A stretch of 64,000 nt of DNA from Octopus vulgaris (taxonomy: Eukaryota). Position 1 is the first letter of the stretch. Each line of letters starts with the position of its first letter. The notes beneath the pieces were generated by a model, which saw only the letters and a list, made by a program, of their open reading frames with translations, did not search any database and was not told the DNA's origin. The stretch covers positions 186,001-250,000 of the forward strand of contig OX597843.1 of the NCBI GenBank assembly GCA_951406725.2, in the 5' to 3' direction. Of the stretch, positions 1,760 through 62,597 are shown piece by piece. The position numbers and the translations under genes were made by a program.

Positions 1760-2134
1760 TTAAGACTGTGCGTGGACGCTATGTGATTGTCTTCGTATTG
1801 AGGTTGTAGACGTTAGCGGTAGCGTCGAGGACGATCGACAAGGGCACATAACTTTGTGCAAGGCGTCCCTAAAGTCGGACAGTCCCCAGGCGTAGAGTCC
1901 GGGATTCCACACGGAGTTGGCATGTGACAAGATGACAGCGAAATTCATGAGTATCGGTGGGATGACACAGTCTTTGCAAAATAACATGATGGCGTTGATT
2001 GTATAGAGCGGGAACCAGGAGACCAAAAACAGGAGTACAATGATTAGCACGCTTTTTGCTGTCTGTGCATCCCGCTTGGCGCTCTCTTTTGTTTGGACTC
2101 CCATAGTGCTTTGCTGCTGTTTCGCTGACTGTAA
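1760..2134 (-). CDS. AdoR: 3'-terminal coding exon (end of ICL3, TM6, ECL3, TM7, helix 8, C-tail) of a class A GPCR, adenosine receptor-like
   Basis: Translation LQSAKQQQSTMGVQ...AKSVLIIVLLFLVSWFPLYTINAIMLFCKDC...ILSHANSVWNPGLYAWGLSDFRDALHKV. It has the TM6 xWxP motif, an ECL3 CxxC and SHANSxxNPxxYA, typical of adenosine receptors. A polypyrimidine acceptor cttttcttttctatttcag ends at 2135 (phase 0); the stop is at 1760-1762. Confidence 0.88.
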   Translation of the reverse strand, partial: LQSAKQQQSTMGVQTKESAKRDAQTAKSVLIIVLLFLVSWFPLYTINAIMLFCKDCVIPPILMNFAVILSHANSVWNPGLYAWGLSDFRDALHKVMCPCRSSSTLPLTSTTSIRRQSHSVHAQS

Positions 2135-5045: not shown

Positions 5046-5775
5046 GGTCTCAAGTATTTGTCTTATGAAGAAAGGCTGAAGACGCTCAACCTTTATTCTC
5101 TAGAAAAACGCCGCCGCCGTGGTGATCTCATTCTCGCTCACAACATCATAAGCGGAAAGTGTAACCTCTCGAAAGAGCTGTTCTTCACTCCTGCTCCAGA
5201 GCATGGGCTGCGGGGTCACTCCGTAAAGCTCTATCTACGACGATTTCATCTCAATCGAAGGAGAGGGGCTTTCTCCGTCCGGGTTGCGGATCCGTGGAAT
5301 AAGCTGCCAGACGAGATAGTGAAGATGCCGACGACCGCTCGGTTCAAAGTCTCTCTTGACCAGAAATGGCCTGAACTCTTTGCATGAACACCTTCCCCAT
5401 ACTTAACTCCCTGTCCCCCTACATGGCCTCACAACATTATAAGCGGAAAGTGTAACCTCTCGAAAGAGCTGTTCTTCACTCCTGCTCCAGAGTGTGAGCT
5501 GCAGGGTCACTCCAAAAAGCTCTATCTATGACGATTTCATCTCAATCGAAGGTGAGGGGCTTTCTCTGTCCGGGTTGCGGATCCGTGGAATAAGCTGCCG
5601 GACAAGATGGTGAAGATGCTGACGACCGCTCGGTTCAAAGTCTCCCTTGACCACAAATGGCCTGAACTCTTTGTATGAACGCCAACCTTGTACATAACTC
5701 CCTGTCCCCCTACATGGCCTTGCTTTTGCTTTTTGAGCCAATAAAAATTGAATTGAATTGAATTGAAATTGAATT
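5046..5775 (+). mobile_element. CR1-group LINE 3' end, two tandem 5'-truncated copies (about 5046-5428 and 5428-5775) with (AATTG)n tail
   Basis: ORF 4974-5387 LSYEERLKTLNLYSLEKRRRRGDLI...LRGHS.KL...FSVRVADPWNKLP matches the CR1-type ORF2 C-terminus. Confidence 0.85.
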
Positions 5776-23794: not shown

Positions 23795-24957
23795 TTTTGG
23801 CATTTTCTTCTTGCTCTTGCTCTCACATGCCTTTCAGACATCAGATGATGGAGTGTTTCTGCACAGTAGAAGTGACGGGAAACTGTTCAATCTCTCGCGT
23901 CTGCGTGCCAAGACCAAAATCAGAAACGTCCTGATAAAAGATGCTATTTGTTGATGATGCCGCTCTGGTATCACACACAGAAGAAGCCCACCAAAGGCTC
24001 ATTAGCTGTTGTGAGCAAGCATGTAATGACTTTGGCTTAGCTATCAGCCTTAACCAACATCATGGGCCAGGCTACATCAGACATCCCAAACATACATATT
24101 GAAGACCACAGATTACAGGAGGTGGAGAAGTTTACCTATCTTGGCTCTACCGTCACCTACAACCTATCCCTTGATGCTGAGCTCAATATACGCATTGGCA
24201 AGGCAGCTGCTGCGATGGCCCAACTCTCCAAACGGGCATGGGACAACAATAAGCTGACCCAAGACCACGAAAGTGAAGATCTACCAGGCATGTGTACTTA
24301 GCACTCTACTGTATGGAAGTGAGACTTGGACGCTATACACACGCCAAGAGCGTCGCCTAAACATCTTTCACCTGCGCTGCCTCCGGAAAATCCTCCGCAT
24401 CATATGGCAGAATCATATCCCCAGCAAAGATGTCCTCAAGCAAGCAGGAATACCAAGCATGCTTGCACTCCTCACACAAAGACGTATGAGATGGCTTGGA
24501 CATGTTAGCCGTATGAAAGATGGCAGAATCCCCAAGGACATACTCTACCGAGAGCTTGCTAGGGGTACTAGGTCTGTGGGTAGACCGTTCTTACGATACA
24601 AGGATGTTTGCAAAAGGGACATGAAGGCCTGCAACATCAATATTAGCAATTGGGAAGCAGTTGCCAGTAACCGTGGAGATTGGCGACATACCGTAAAAGA
24701 GGGAATACAAAGGAGTGACAGAGAGAGAGAGAGGAGAAATGGATAGACAAGGAAGAGACGTCAACAAGAAACTATGACATTACAACCAGCCAGGAAGTCT
24801 TCGCTACATTTGCGGTACCTGCCAGAGGAAGTGTTTGTCCAGGATAGGACTACACAGCCACAGCAGGAAATGTATTAGGACATGAAATGTAAAAGCCGGA
24901 CTAGATTATTTTATGCACAACTCCATTGTCTCCCGAGACAAAAAGGATGCCAACAAT
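23795..24957 (+). pseudogene. 5'-truncated, frameshifted RTE (BovB-like) LINE: RT C-half, C-terminal domain, 3' UTR
   Basis: [77 protein letters not shown], spread across three frames. Confidence 0.9.
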
Positions 24958-25319
24958 ATGTATATATATATATATATTCAAATATTATCATATGTATATA
25001 AATGTAATTATGCGCATACATTTTCTATTTTCTATAGTTTGGCTCTGATTACACAGGCATGCCCACCATCATAGAAAACACACACAGACACACACACACA
25101 CTTTAGTTAATAATAGTACATGTATGTATGTATGCACCTGCTACTGTGTATGCGTATGTTTGAATGGAAGTAGTGTTCCTGAAGTACTTCCCATCCAGGC
25201 ACAAGCACCGGAAGTTATTTGTTATTAACCAACACCAAGTTCACCCACAGCTATGTGTGTGTGTATGTGTGTGTGTGTGTGTGTACTCATAAACACAGAA
25301 ACATAAAAATGCACATTCC

Positions 25320-27045: not shown

Positions 27046-29169
27046 ATGGTTGGATGGTTTGAGTGAGGACTGGTGAGCCAGAAGGCTGCACCAGGCTCCA
27101 ATCTTGATCTGGCAAAGTTCCTACAGCTGGATGCCCTTCCTAATGCCAACCACTCTGAGAGTGTAGTGGGTGCTTTTACGTGCAACCGGCACAAGGGCCA
27201 GTCAGGCAATACTGGTAATGACCATGTTCAAAAAGTGTTTTTTATGTGTCACCCGCACAGGAGCCAGTCCAGTGGCACTGGCAAGGACCTCGCTCGAATG
27301 TTTTGTTCATGTGCCACCAGCACAAGTGCCAGTAAGGCGACACTAGTAACGATCAGGCTAACAATATTAGAAACGGCTCTGATGAGTATAGCATTCTTTC
27401 TTTCTTTCTTTCTTTTACTTGTTTCAGTCATTTGACTGTGGCCATGCTGGAGCACTGCCTTTTGTCGAGCAAATCGACTATTCTTTGCAAGCCTAGCACT
27501 TATTTTATTGGTCTATTTTGCCGAACCGCTAAGTTATGGGGGCGTAAACATACCAGCATCTGTTGTCAAGTGATGTTTGGGGGACAAACACAAATACACA
27601 AACACACACACATATAAATACATATACATATATACGACGGGCTTCTTTCAGTTTCCGTCTACCAAATCCTCTCACAAGGCTTTGGTCGGCCCGAAGCTAT
27701 AATAGAAGACACTTGCCCAAGGTGTCACACAGTGGGACTGAACCCGGAACCATGTGGTTGGTAAGCAAGCTACTTACCACACAGCCACTCCTGCACCTAT
27801 ATATATATACGACGGGCTTCTTTCACTTTCCGTCTACCAAATCCACTCACAAGGCTTTGGTCGGCCCGAGGCTATAGTAGAAAACACTCGCCCAAGGTGT
27901 CACGCAGTGGGACTGAATCCGGACCTATGTGGTTGGTAAGCAAGCTACTAACTACACAGCCACTCCTGCGCCTATACGACGGGCTTCTTTCTGTTTCCAT
28001 CTACCAAATCCACTCACGAGGCTTTGGTCGGCCCAAGGCTATAGTAGAAGACACTTGCCCAAGGTGTCACGCAGTGGGACTGAACCCGGAACCATGTGGT
28101 TGGTAAGCAAGCTACTTACCACACAGCCACTCCTACACCTAGTTGGTGAAAAGACAAAATATGAAAAGAAAAGAGAAAGTCTTGCATATTCTAGCAGTTG
28201 CTTGCACAGATGACGAGAGTTCTAATCCAGTCCGGTTCTCTGTAGACATCCAAGAATAAGATGCCTGATGACAATTGCAGACCAAACAGATTGGAACTTT
28301 GTGTAGATGGAAATATTGTGAATATGTATTTTGAAGAGAGGACATGGAGAGATAATGTGGTTTCTAAATAACCCTTAAACAAGGGATGGGCACGTTTGGA
28401 ATGCCTTTGATCATATAGGTCTGCTTAACCAGGGGGGCCTAACCTAACCAAGAACACCAGCAGCAACATGCGCTGAAACACACACACATGCACATACACA
28501 CACACACATACACACACACACATGCACAAACTCACACACACATACACATACATACTCACACACACACACTCTCACACACACATACACTCACACACACACA
28601 CACTCTCACACACACTCACACACACACTCTCACACACACACATACAATCACACACACACTCTCACACACACACACACTCTCACACACATACACTCACACA
28701 CACACACATACACTCACACACACTCACTCACACACACACACACACATGCAGACACATCTCTCATTACTACCACTGCTACCCCCTCCTTTCTTCTTTACAA
28801 GTGATGGAGCGGTGGGAGGCAGGGTGGGAGGAAGGGGTGGTGGATAATGTTGAAAAAGGGGGGAGATGGTGAGTGCAGATGGTGGAGGTGTTGATGGAGG
28901 GGGGTAAGAAAAAGGTAGAGGGTGGAAAGAGAGGTACATGAAGGGAAGAAGAGATGAGAGATAGATGGAGAGAGAAATAGAGAGAGATAGAAAGAGAGGG
29001 AGAGAGAGAGAGAGAACTGGTAGTGGAAAGCAACAGGAGGTGAAGGCAGAGAGGGAAGTTATGTAGTGGGGAGGGTGAGAGTTAATGACAAAAGGAAGTG
29101 GGAGTGGGGAGTGGTGGTGGGAGGTAAGAATAGTGAGAAGACAGAAGGGTGGTAGTGGTGGTGGTGGTG

Positions 29170-34679: not shown

Positions 34680-35495
34680 CTAGCACTATGACCTGAGTCA
34701 TAGTGCTAGTGCATGCATATACAGCTGCGTGCGTGCACACATACACACGAGTACTGTCCAAATCTCCGACCAATCACATACAGCTAGCTGGCATTCAATT
34801 GGCGTATCAAGTTTTGGGCATTTTGATTGGGTTTTGGATAGAAAATTCACAAAAAGTCACTTCTATTGATATTTTAATGGCTTTACGGGGTGAGTGGGGA
34901 AATATAAAAATGTGCACGACCACCCTTGGACGGTTTTGAATGACCATAGAAAGTGCGAGCCCTCTAACTGAAAAATTGTGGATTTGTATAAAGGACACGC
35001 ACACAGACATTTTGCCGTTTATATATAGAGAGATTTGCAGGGTAACTGGGGAAATGTAAAGATGTGCACGACCACCCTTGGACTGTTTTGAATGACCATA
35101 GAAAGTGTGAGCCCTCTAACTGAAAAATTGTGGATTTGTATAAAGGACACGCACACAGACATTTTGCCGTTTATATATATAGAGAGATTTGCGGGGTGAC
35201 TGGGGAAATGTAAAGATGTGCACGACCACCCTTGGACAGTTTTGAATGACCATAGAAAGTGTGAGCCCTCTAACTGAAAAATTGTGGATTTGTATAAAGG
35301 ACACACACACAGACAGACATTTTGCCGTTTATATATAGAGAGATTTGTGGGGTGACTGGGGAAATGTAAAGATGTGCACGACCACCCTTGGACAGTTTTG
35401 AATGACCATAGAAAGTGTGAGCCCTCTAACTGAAAAATTGTGGATTTGTATAAAGGACATGCACACAGACATTTTGCCGTTTATATATAGAGAGA
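34680..35495 (-). mobile_element. Non-autonomous Helitron with four tandem copies of its 5'-terminal segment (about 154 bp)
   Basis: Minus strand A|TCTCTCTATATATAAAC...CTAG|T, an AT insertion site. A 14-bp-arm hairpin actagcactatgac/gtcatagtgctagt lies at 34679-34710. Units end at about 35033, 35187, 35343 and 35495. Confidence 0.75.
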
Positions 35496-35663
35496 TTACC
35501 TGAAAAACCATGTTATGATGAAACTCATAGTAATAATATAATGAAAGAATATCAAGCTTATATAGGCACAAGAGTGGCTGTGTGATAAGAAGGTTGCTTC
35601 CCAACCACATGGTTCTGGGTTCAGTCCCATTGTGTGACATCTTGGGCAAGTATATTCTACTAT

Positions 35664-36373
35664 AGCCCTGTCTGCCAGGTTGTGGCCCTAATACCACTCG
35701 GTGTCAGACCAATCTGCCTTGGGTGGCCCTACCAGGAACCGAAGTTCCCGATGGTATAGCTCTGACACTACCCGTTGCCAGCGTCCCCACCACGGTGAGG
35801 AGGAGATGGACTTTGGGGACACAAACAGACACTCCGAGGATTTTCACCAGAGCCTCGTCTGCCGGCTTATGGCCCTAATACCACTCGGTGTCAGACCAAT
35901 CTGCCTTGGGTGGCCCTACCAGGAACCAAAGTTCCCAACGGCATAGCTCTGATACTACCCGTTGCCAGCGTCCCCATCACGGTGAGGAGAGGAGGGACTT
36001 TGGGGACACAAACAGACACTCTGAGGATTTTCACCAGAGCCCCGTCTGCTGGGTTGTGGCCCTAATACCACTCGGTGTCAGACCAATCTGCCTTGGGTGG
36101 CCCTACCAGGAACCAAAGTTCCCAACAGCATAGCTCTGACACTACCCATTGCCAGCGTCCCCACCACAGTTAGGAGAGGAGGGACTTTGGGGACACAAAC
36201 AGACACTCTGAGGATTTTCACCAGAGCCCCGTCTGCTGGGTTGTGGCCCTAATACCACTCGGTGTCAGACCAATCTGCCTTGGGTGGCCCTACCAGGAAC
36301 CGAAGTTCCCGACGGCATAGCTCTGACACTACCCGTTGCCAGCGTCCCCACCACGGTGAGGAGGGGATGGACT
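35664..36373 (-). repeat. 187-bp head-to-tail tandem array (about 3.8 units) encoding a highly structured RNA; candidate HDV-like ribozyme per unit
   Basis: gtgtcagacc recurs at 35701, 35888, 36075 and 36262. Minus-strand stems: gtcccca/tggggac, gtgtcaga/tctgacac, tgcc/ggca and ggaac-TTCG-gttcc. The array is certain; the ribozyme call is inferred. Confidence 0.8.
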
Positions 36374-36584
36374 GTGCATATATATATATATATATATATG
36401 CACAGTAATCGCCATAAATGCCAATATATTTATCTTGCCAAAAAACCCCCAAAAAAATGAAATGGTAACAGAAGAAACATAAAAATTTGCTGTTAGTTCA
36501 TTTCTTGAATGTTTCCTTATATTTGGCATCCAGACAAGACTGGATACCTCTGCTTGTTATCATCATTACATGTGTGTGTGTATG

Positions 36585-37247: not shown

Positions 37248-37933
37248 TAAATATATAGCTAGATAAAGTTTCTTTATTAGCCACACAGGGCCGGTGATGG
37301 ATACACACATACACGCAGATTTGCACGTGCATACATGTATGTTGCCAATAATAGCACAAATTTCTACGTTTACTCGTTGCAGTCACTGGTTGCGGCCAAG
37401 CTGGAGCAGTGCATTTGTGAAATTATTAGTTTATTTCACCACACCTTTCTCTTCATTTTTCATTACACACACACATGCTCAAACCCACACACACACATAT
37501 ACACACACACATATACACACACACAGGTGTGCATGCATATACACATACTCTTTACTCTCTTTTACTCGTTTCAGTCATTTGACTGGAGCACCGCCTTTAG
37601 TCGAGCAACTCGACCCCGGGACTCATTCTTTTTGTAAGCCCACCACTTATTCTATCGGTCTCTTTTTGCCGAACCGCTAAGTAACGGGGATGTAAACACA
37701 CCAGCATCGGTTGTCAAGCAATGCTAGGGGGACAAACACAGACACACAAACACATACATATATATACACATATATAGGACGGGCTTCTTTCAGTTTCCGT
37801 CTACCAAATCCACTCACAAGGCATTGGTCGGCACGGGGCTATAGCAGAAGACACTTGCCCAAGATGCCACGCAGTGGGACTGAACCCAGAACCATGTGGT
37901 TGGTAAACAAGCTACTTAACACACAGCCACTCC

Positions 37934-37981
<48 letters not shown>

Positions 37982-38684
37982 TACGACGGGCTTCTTTCAG
38001 TTTCTGTCTACTAAATCCACTCACAAGGCATTGGTCGGCCCGAGGCTATAGCAGAAGACACTTGCCCAAGGTGCCACGCAGTGGGACTGAACCCGGAACC
38101 ATGTGGTTGGTAGGCAAGCTACTTACCACACAGCCACTCCTGCGCCTATAAATATACATATAAATATACTCGTGGATACACGGAGATCTTTAATAATAGA
38201 ACAAATGTTTATTTTTACTTGTTTCAGTCAGTTGTTGCGACCTTGCTGGAGCAATGCATTCATTAGATTATTAGCCTATTTCACCACACCTGCCTCTTCG
38301 TGTTTGGTTTTGGTAAATGAGGAAGTTGGCCAATTCTGCCCTTCTTTGCATTCCTTGCTTTGGTTTGAGATTATTTGGTATCTCAGACAGAATTTTTGTC
38401 TCTGAGTATTTTGAACACATCCACATCTCTGAGGATTTTTGGCAAGATAGCGAAAAACTATGATCCTTTGAACCCTAAACTGCTTAATATTGATTCCCTG
38501 AAATCATCATCATCATCACCATCATCACCATCACCACCACCACCACCATCATCACCATCATCACCATCATCATCACCACCGTCATCATCACCATCATCAC
38601 CATCACCATCATCATCATCATCACCATCACCATCACCACCACCACCACCACCATCATCACCATCATCACCATCATCATCACCAC

Positions 38685-45960: not shown

Positions 45961-45999
<39 letters not shown>

Positions 46000-46527
46000 A
46001 TGGGCTTCTTTCAGTTTCCGTCTACCAAATCCACTCACAAGCCTTTGGTCAGCCCGAAGCTATAGTAGAAGACACTTGCCCAAGATGCCACGCAGTGGGA
46101 CTGAACCTGGAACCATGTGGTTGGTAAACAAGCTACTTACCACACAGCCACTCCTGCGCCTATATATATACATATATACGACAGGCTTCTTTCAGTTTCC
46201 ATCTACCAAATCCACTCACAAGGCTTTGGTCGGCCCGAGGCTATAGTAGAAGACACTTACCCAAGATGCCACGCAGTGGGACTGAACCCGGAACCATGTG
46301 GTTCGTAAACAAGCTACTTACCACACAGCCACTCCTGCACCTATATATATATATATACATATATACGACAGGTTTCTTTTCAGTTTCCATCTACCAAATC
46401 CACTCACAAGGCTTTGGTCGGTCCGAGGCTATAGTAGAAGACACTTACCCAAGATGCCACATAGTGGGACTGAACCCGGAACCATGTGGTTCGTAAACAA
46501 GCTACTTACCACACAGCCACTCCTGCG

Positions 46528-46593
<66 letters not shown>

Positions 46594-61227: not shown

Positions 61228-62597
61228 TATGTTCATGTGTGTGTGTATATATATACATACACACACACATCTATACATACACAAACATACATATATGTAT
61301 ATCTATGTACATATGTACATGTATATATATATACACACAGACACACATGCACACACAGACACACACACACGTGTATACTTATATATATACACATCTATGC
61401 ATATATGTATATGTGTGTGTGTGTATATACATACACATATATATGCTTAATCATACTCTGTATACATACACGTATATATATAAAAGCATATACATGCATA
61501 TATACACATATGTATTTGTACGGACTTATACATACCTACATATATGTGTATGTGTGTGTGCATACTCATGTGTGTGTGTGTATTCACGTATGTATGTATA
61601 TATATATGCCAACCAAACAGCCGCCATCTTACTCTCATATGACGTCACTAACAAACTCAGACAGATACGATGAACATTCTGTCTTAGATAGAAATCTTTT
61701 GACATAATACTCCACCCACCTTCACTGTGTGTGCCACAACAGGGTACCATTACTACACCGCGCCGTACTACCTCTTGTACCCCCTTCTCAAATCAATCTT
61801 ATACACACACACACATGCTTATTTCTTAGATATTTATATCTAAGGCGCAGGAGTGGCTGTGTGGTAAGTAGCTTGCTTACCAACCACATGGTTCCGGGTT
61901 CAGTCCCACTGCGTGGCACCTTGGGCAAGTGTCTGCTACTATAGCCTCGGGCCGACCAAAGCCTTGTGAGTGGATTTGGTAGACGGAAACTGAAAGAAGC
62001 CCGTCATATATATGTATACATATATAGGTGCAGGAGTGGCTGTGTGGTAAGTAGCTTGCTTACCAACCACATGGTTCCGGGTTCAGTCCCACTGCATGGC
62101 ACCTTGGGCAAGTGTCTACTACTATAGCCTCGGGCCGACCAAAGCCTTGTGAGTGGATTTGGTAGACAGAAGCTGGAAGAAGCCCGTCGTATATATGTAT
62201 ATATGTATGTGCGTGTATGTTTGTGTTTGTCCCCCTAGCATTGCTTGACAACCGATGCTGGTGTGTTTATGTCCCCGTCACTTTGCGGTTCGGCAAAATA
62301 GAGCGATAGAATAAGTACTGGGCTTACAAAGAATAAGTCCCGGGGTCGAGTTGCTCGATTAAAGGCGGTGCTCCAGCATGGTCGCAGTCAAATGACTGAA
62401 ACAAGTAAAAGAGTATATATTAATTTCAAATTTTGAAGCAAGCCCAGCAGTTTTTGGCGTAGGCTCACCAAAAGGATGAAAGGCAAAGTTGACCTCAGAG
62501 GAATTTGAACTCAGAATGTGAAGACATGAAATTTCGTTAAGCATTCTGCCCGGTGAGCGAAAGATTCAGCCAGCTCACCACTTTATATATATATTTA

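Follow-up and report, generated by a model that had tools for sequence, protein, structure and literature searches.

HDV-like ribozymes are known at the 5' ends of RTE elements (PMC6765202), and LINE 5' ends with HDV-like and twister motifs have been noted (PMC7761336). In such ribozymes P1 is usually about 7 bp long and its first base marks the cut (PMC3774820). Bipartite non-autonomous RTE derivatives are already known (PMC5786205); in these and in the R2 SIDEs, a ribozyme-bearing 5' UTR is joined by internal deletion to the 3' end of the LINE, and the copies, which number in the hundreds, carry a microsatellite tail and target-site duplications (TSDs) (PMC5786205, PMC3774820). Tails and TSDs of RTE elements are treated in PMC6007223. 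Animal non-LTR retrozymes consist of 150-300-bp tandem units with one self-cleaving motif each; they are derived from the terminus of an autonomous retroelement, carry hammerhead ribozymes and are linked to Penelope elements (PMC7229834; 10.64898/2026.07.22.740005). They form dispersed arrays with abundant circular RNA and low GC, and according to the preprint 10.64898/2026.07.22.740005 they avoid introns. The CPEB3 ribozyme is a single HDV-like ribozyme that lies in sense orientation in a long intron and is conserved across mammals. No mention of ribozymes was found in the main text of the octopus repeat papers PMC13282606 and PMC9115989. In a search that ran mostly outside Repbase and the subscription literature (e.g. 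Ruminski 2011), no paper describing tandem HDV-like RTE heads was found, and supplements may list the family.

The window analysed here is the whole stretch of 64,000 nt (C30:186001-250000). TRF analysis of the window showed a tandem repeat with an exact period of 187 bp (35664-36373; 3.8 copies, 93% matches, 0 indels). The GC content of the array was 57.5%, compared with 34-37% in the 2-kb flanks. Its longest stop-free frame has 88 codons, and it was not considered to be coding. The period, the copy number, the GC contrast and the lack of a credible ORF agree with the first-pass annotation of this DNA, and the minus-strand motifs quoted there are present, with UUCG loops in units 1 and 4 only. 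Of the 195 candidate minus-strand frames in the window, 127 were searched against Pfam, and the only curated match was the GPCR exon listed in Table 1. The four units, which are complete or truncated copies of a 187-nt element 5' end (the head), shared 137-144 of 151 sites in pairwise comparisons.

Table 1. Features of the tandem array and its surroundings in the window (head positions are counted from G1).
Feature	Position	Strand	Remarks
Last coding exon (TM6-7) of a rhodopsin-family GPCR	1760-2134	-	Pfam 7tm_1, E 7.5e-13
5' half of an unrelated SINE	35559-35667	+	GGGCT microhomology join to unit 4
Tandem array of RTE 5' heads	35664-36376	-	Head positions 8-187, 1-187, 1-187, 1-159
Unit 4 (head 1-159)	35664-35822	-	Putative catalytic C 35674; predicted cut between 35823 and 35822
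Unit 3	35823-36009	-	Putative catalytic C 35861; predicted cut between 36010 and 36009
Unit 2	36010-36196	-	Putative catalytic C 36048; predicted cut between 36197 and 36196
Unit 1 (head 8-187)	36197-36376	-	L3 36359-36353; putative catalytic C 36235
Perfect 36-bp palindrome around (AT)n	36371-36406		At the 5' junction of the array

Both ends of the array differ from the earlier description. Its start had been placed about 10 nt inside the cut site; homology begins at head position 8, and the last 6 bases of the palindrome are also head positions 8-13. Its other end, described as lying just after the putative P2 3' strand, is no natural end; it is the join to the SINE half, which points into the array antisense to the ribozyme and has more than 20 relatives in the window; we take this SINE to be tRNA-like. 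No RTE body, tail or TSD was found at the locus. Because of the SINE join at the 3' side, the palindrome at the 5' side and the absence of body and tail, the copy in the window was considered to be rearranged after insertion and immobile as an RTE derivative.

A genome search (2.8 Gb) with one unit gave 1233 first-look candidates, of which 40 were scored. At most loci the unit was present singly; the copies start with GCGTCCCC and continue into a shared body of about 215 nt and an AGTA-type tail, often with a TSD. Short copies measured 400-500 nt, many of them with TSDs, and longer copies ended in the last codons of a LINE protein. One locus, L088 (C4:96494900-96500700), contained head, body, endonuclease (Pfam Exo_endo_phos), RT (RVT_1) and the same 3' tail; its 5' part is inverted relative to the 3' part, and L112 and L129 are similar. 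Inversions of this type are known from L1, where they arise by twin priming. The endonuclease-bearing copies L107-L116 and L129 had a single head, except for a 57-nt partial duplication in L114. On the basis of L088 and these single-head copies, the unit was identified as the initial 187 nt of a LINE 5' UTR; in this LINE a single frame with endonuclease and RT follows the head, and there is no separate ORF1. The origin from an RTE 5' UTR suggested in the first-pass annotation was thereby borne out. The 400-500-nt copies are internal-deletion derivatives of this LINE, and thus resemble the bipartite RTE derivatives and R2 SIDEs in structure, tail, TSDs and copy number, with at least 428 genomic copies of the head-body join (exact matches). 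From its architecture and motifs the LINE appears to be of RTE type; comparison of its RT with the Atlas returned RVT_1 clusters only. The window also holds a 5'-truncated fragment of a different RTE-like LINE (23800-24960, plus strand), which has a Cys/His motif at its C terminus and differs in its 3' end; the RTE-like fragment at 24258-24746 was rejected as a partner of the array, since its 3' end differs.

In head numbering, the predicted fold of the minus strand consists of P1 (1-8/35-42), P2 (18-21/154-157), P3 (22-24/32-34), L3 (25-31), P1.1 (26-27/43-44) and P4 (49-147), with C149 as the putative catalytic base and A152 following in J4/2. Three sister families (B, C and D) were retrieved by searches with the endonuclease and with diverged heads. 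P1 of the family of the array (A) is GCGUCCCC/GGGGACGC, 8 bp, while those of B (CUACCCU/AGGGUGG) and D (CCUUCCU/GGGAAGG) have 7 bp each; the three sequences are different and each is fully paired. When P1 strands were swapped across families, 4-6 of 7 pairs still formed, so that the swap is a weak control. Conservation dropped to background just upstream of P1 in A, B and D. In family A, 15 of 52 sampled copies began at the first base of P1 and 29 of 52 within 5 nt of it; in family B, 14 of 30 copies began exactly at the first P1 base. HDV-like ribozymes usually have G as the first base; in family B (L199-L222) the predicted first base is C, paired with G, yet copies begin exactly there.

The core positions were likewise found across families. 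L3 had U in 29 of 29 and G in 26 of 29 copies of B, with a CA/UG P1.1 in 27 of 29, and in D U in 19 of 20 and G in 16 of 20, with a single A-U pair in P1.1; P1.1 of family A is C-G/A-U. The textbook HDV-like fold has a P3 of 3 bp. P3 consisted of two C-G pairs and a U-U in A, B and the single C copy, and of three Watson-Crick pairs in D (89-94% paired). J4/2 reads GGCAGA in A, GGCCAA in B and GGCUAA in C and D; the middle bases vary, and C and A are conserved (28/29 and 29/29 in B, 19/20 each in D). P2 has four C-G pairs (4 bp in A), and the base of P4 shows a U-A/C-G swap. In 22 aligned copies 94.5% of cells paired, compared with 30-52% when the strands were slid, and none of 500 shuffles did as well (0/500), which reflects about two family-level swaps and not 22 events. 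Within family A, non-CpG changes in the core (95/2955) were not rarer than elsewhere (172/8911), as would be expected if the copies are dead; covariation within this family alone is uninformative. As side observations, the older sister family D (L251-L270; 901 first-look candidates) combines a textbook core and 3-bp P3 with GGCUAA and one P1.1 pair, and in L115 and L136 (family C) a common upstream sequence from another element replaces the P1 5' strand and P2, a possible 5' switch.

An Rfam search (E ≤ 10) of 33-39 kb and the array gave no ribozyme family, only chance miRNA and CRISPR matches; the HDV-like match sought for the unit was thus not obtained, and no hammerhead was matched in the unit either, its fold being HDV-like. 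The P4 of about 100 nt may defeat the Rfam models, and an Rfam match is not part of the definition of an HDV-like ribozyme. One unit cut at the array phase gave a folding z of -2.1. A hairpin of positions 148-185 that could sequester J4/2 appears in minimum-energy folds and is stronger with C185. The predicted HDV-like fold of the head is well supported by the comparison of families, including the CA/UG P1.1, the U..G L3, the branched P4 and the CNRA motif read earlier on the minus strand. The head is probably an HDV-like 5' ribozyme of the kind seen in R2 and RTE elements, and on this model the family head would quite likely self-cleave. Like those ribozymes, it is predicted to form a nested double pseudoknot exactly at the 5' end, in which P1 sets the cut, with U..G in L3 and C..A in J4/2, and its element 5' ends coincide with the predicted cut. 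The 8-bp P1, the U-U in P3, the 4-bp P2 and the lack of an Rfam match speak against the assignment. The head differs from those ribozymes in the 8-bp P1, the C-G/A-U P1.1, the 2-bp P3 with U-U and the branched P4 of about 100 nt of family A, and in its tandem arrangement here.

Because P1 begins at G1 of each unit, the cuts in the array are predicted at the boundaries given in Table 1; the first-pass annotation had placed them near 35820-35822, 36007-36009 and 36194-36196, an approximate location that held and was refined to single bonds. Unit 1 has no cut site of its own, as the P1 5' strand is missing. In unit 2, P1 is intact with one G-U, and C26A in L3 disrupts the C-G pair of P1.1. In unit 3, G33A leaves a single pair in P3, and C144G lies in the P4 base. 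Unit 4 is the best preserved and has no downstream hairpin able to sequester J4/2; its G154A mismatches the P2 pair adjoining P3. Each of the three junction units (2, 3 and 4) thus has a core lesion, with 0/3 intact. A monomer is set free only by two cuts in succession, and unit 3 takes part in either of the two possible pairs. The array in the window therefore seems to be dead, a relic from which unit-length RNA would seldom be released.

The GPCR exon in Table 1 has a matching TM1-5 exon on the same contig (C30), recognised by motifs at about 282.7-283.3 kb (L239:2737-3306, minus strand). The GT donor and AG acceptor are both in phase 0, the separation is about 94.6 kb, and no other TM1-5-type exon was found between the two exons. 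The array likely lies inside this GPCR intron of about 94.6 kb on the sense strand, and is probably transcribed within it. With the array likely intronic and in sense orientation, unit 4 could nick the pre-mRNA. The putative intron covers nearly the entire window. We take the two-exon GPCR to be adenosine-receptor-like; the frame of its first exon has long Ala/Ser runs upstream of TM1. In its HDV-like fold, orientation and place in a long intron, the array recalls the CPEB3 ribozyme; unlike that single, conserved ribozyme, it is a decayed transposon relic without sign of constraint.

The junction between heads, at which position 187 is joined directly to G1, was then sought in the genome. At equal stringency, 23 exact matches to the head-head join were found, compared with 428 to the head-body join. 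With up to 2 mismatches, there were 35 junction matches at 24 loci on nine contigs; a 25th multi-head locus (L180), with a variant junction, was found by sampling. Occurrence elsewhere only as the single 5' end of ordinary RTE elements had been named beforehand as a result that would refute the proposed ribozyme concatemer and make the array a local slippage duplication. The unit is indeed mostly single, which largely refutes that proposal, but a one-off local slippage does not follow, as 24 loci share the junction. That the array is an assembly artefact or a one-off local slippage is hardly credible: tandems of many repeats are dense in the region, but the units differ at 7-14 of 151 sites by changes both shared and private, and the same junction occurs on nine contigs.

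Of the 25 multi-head loci examined, the body follows the heads in 23 and the tail is retained in 19; two heads are present at most of them, and the longest array has five. None of the 24 junction loci was on C1-C13 (the 13 largest contigs), compared with 24 of 54 sampled head-body loci (P=3e-5), and 21 of 24 were on C23-C34. Nine deletion spacers were distinguished among the 19 typed junction loci, and single copies showed the same range of spacers. With nine deletion types under one junction, descent from a single multi-head master was rejected as a full explanation. T185 was found in 35 of 35 junctions, and C185 in 29 of the 100 listed head-body joins. That each locus had duplicated its own head independently was rejected, C185 being found in 0 of 24 junction loci, unless the RT adds untemplated bases at this point. 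C2T was present in 8 of 10 junction loci on C30 and in 3 of 24 singles. In 7 of 15 two-head loci, both heads had a common private non-CpG change in the middle of the head. Such a pattern, with bases of the donor at the junction and of the recipient elsewhere, is expected of ectopic conversion into resident copies.

Other junctions gave a comparable picture. A junction unconnected with the cut site, in which body position 120 is joined to head position 68, served as a control. It was found at 10 loci, all 10 on C23-C34, with G74A in 9 of 10 and four deletion types among the 7 typed; it is a 240-bp internal duplication (L018, L082, L085, L179 and L227-L232). Duplications of the same LINE family with other breakpoints were also clustered on C27-C30. 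Unrelated tandems with units of 100-500 bp numbered 3 in 243 kb of C1-C13 flanks and 7 in 62 kb of C27+ flanks, the latter partly chosen around tandem loci; a further 6 lay in the window and 17 in the 150 kb that follow it, which were unselected (L236-L250). They are about ninefold denser on small chromosomes than on C1-C13. The array in the window is thus one of many in a duplication-prone region, as unrelated repeats are duplicated there too. The six other tandems in the window have SINE or LINE units of 150-290 bp (5137-5720, 27623-28141, 34882-35497, 37754-38168, 45974-46553 and 61843-62208).

Several further observations were made during this survey. In L234 (C29:27496000-27497900), a 111-bp piece that comprises only the P4 domain (head 36-148) is repeated seven to eight times, with variants alternating. 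L178, L179 and L232 form a local cluster (C27, 6.96-7.45 Mb) in which G1 of the following head is preceded by body position 91 and a short AATGAAG-type insert. Tandems of another SINE, with a fixed period of 183-184 bp, occur at the unlinked loci L008, L021, L076, L102, L202 and L212, including C4 and C15. Long intact frames were present in flanks: L095:341-2114, presumably a Penelope-like RT with a GIY-YIG-like end; L100:1495-3319, which we take to be an intronless choline-dehydrogenase-like gene; and L090:1964-3932, presumably a C2H2 zinc-finger exon.

Multi-head copies might also have been inserted as such, either by TPRT through the junctions of read-through RNA that escaped cleavage or by an RT that switched onto multi-head RNA. 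TSDs often lie beside a 5'-truncated first head and flank whole insertions in L009, L036 and L039; in L038 and L084, TTT or TTTGT separates the TSD from the first head. Terminal heads are enriched in C185 (12 of 21 loci, compared with 29 of 100, P=0.02), and the competing hairpin that C185 strengthens would suit RNA that escapes cleavage. G1 also recurs as a breakpoint in other duplications, both short and long (L114, L159, L178, L179, L202 and L206). These points (breakpoints, TSDs and C185) keep this explanation in play, as a minority possibility of roughly one chance in five. It leaves unexplained the confinement to small chromosomes and distal arms, the C2T specific to C30, the nine spacers under one junction and the same pattern at a junction away from the cut site; in addition, the endonuclease-bearing copies are single-headed apart from the partial duplication in L114.

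The first-pass annotation had proposed an autonomous non-coding concatemer, an HDV-type retrozyme: arrays would be transcribed and cut to 187-nt monomers, a host ligase would circularise these, and the RTE RT would copy the circle into new arrays. The exact position of the junction at the predicted cut site in all 35 matches would suit such a cycle, as would the two or more successive intact heads at three loci (L005, L051 and L078) and the likely sense orientation of the array in a transcribed intron; the preprint 10.64898/2026.07.22.740005 proposes that hammerhead retrozymes came from a retroelement terminal module by local tandem amplification. The proposal did not hold up against the genomic distribution, with the body retained at nearly all loci and no more than five heads, no dispersal to large chromosomes, and no intact junction unit in the window. 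Intact cores were not in excess (16 of 32 downstream array heads, compared with 34 of 58 singles, P=0.51), so that this comparison gave no sign of selection for intact ribozymes in arrays, and sequence differences between units of the same array were about as large as those between unrelated copies (6.6% between heads within arrays, 8.0-8.3% between arrays). We regard a retrozyme of this kind as very improbable. A related reading, in which the multi-head loci are a nascent HDV-type retrozyme and L005, L051 and L078 would release 187-nt RNA that is circularised, reverse-transcribed and recombined into resident copies, is improbable too, by a slightly smaller measure. Logan contigs from 4 of the 24 listed runs (X1, X2, X13 and X9; guessed to be RNA) covered the element of the single-head locus L027 piecewise, with a 111-nt back-joint listed and the 187-to-1 joint absent. 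They count neither way on circular RNA, because contigs cannot show ends, strand or circles. The back-joint of the L234 type was also listed in the contigs of runs X1, X2 and X9.

Taken together, the array is a row of four LINE 5' heads whose tandem arrangement was probably spread and expanded by DNA recombination on small duplication-prone chromosomes, and not by way of circular RNA. The ribozyme would normally trim the element out of read-through host transcripts. The founder junction would have arisen once, probably when the RT, on arriving at the cut 5' end, switched back to an RNA of the same type; ectopic conversion would then have carried the junction into other resident copies, and unequal exchange would have expanded the tandems. 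The divergence between heads of one array is almost that between unrelated heads, so that the events are old, and recombination as the route is read from patterns only. The recurrence of G1 as a breakpoint suggests RT at least for the founders, and counts against recombination. The C185 enrichment in terminal heads is unexpected under random recipients and counts against it as well. The TSDs found next to truncated first heads are compatible with multi-head insertion and with conversion alike.

Compared with the bipartite RTE derivatives and SIDEs, the family stands out in that a few percent of copies have 2-5 heads with one junction, and the copy in the window lacks body and tail. With the retrozymes it shares the unit length, a self-cleaving motif in each unit (here predicted) and the derivation from the terminus of an autonomous retroelement. 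Retrozymes are hammerhead-based and Penelope-linked, whereas the array here is HDV-like and RTE-linked; unlike retrozymes, the tandem heads of this family mostly stay attached to an element body, and they are GC-rich, short and chromosome-restricted. The array should not be filed as a non-LTR retrozyme, two defining features of which, the hammerhead and the detached dispersed arrays, it does not have.

A tandem of ribozyme units alone does not make a retrozyme. The sister families provide natural HDV-like variants in thousands of genomic copies, with the form of 8-bp P1 and U-U in P3 beside the textbook form. Rearrangement junctions appear to move between dispersed retroelement copies only on the small chromosomes, where ectopic conversion would thus be measurable. 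Were the circular-RNA explanation true, retrozymes would no longer be limited to one class of ribozyme and one helper LINE but would include a second of each; were the loci a nascent retrozyme, they would be the RTE/HDV counterpart of the Penelope/hammerhead retrozymes, caught at birth.
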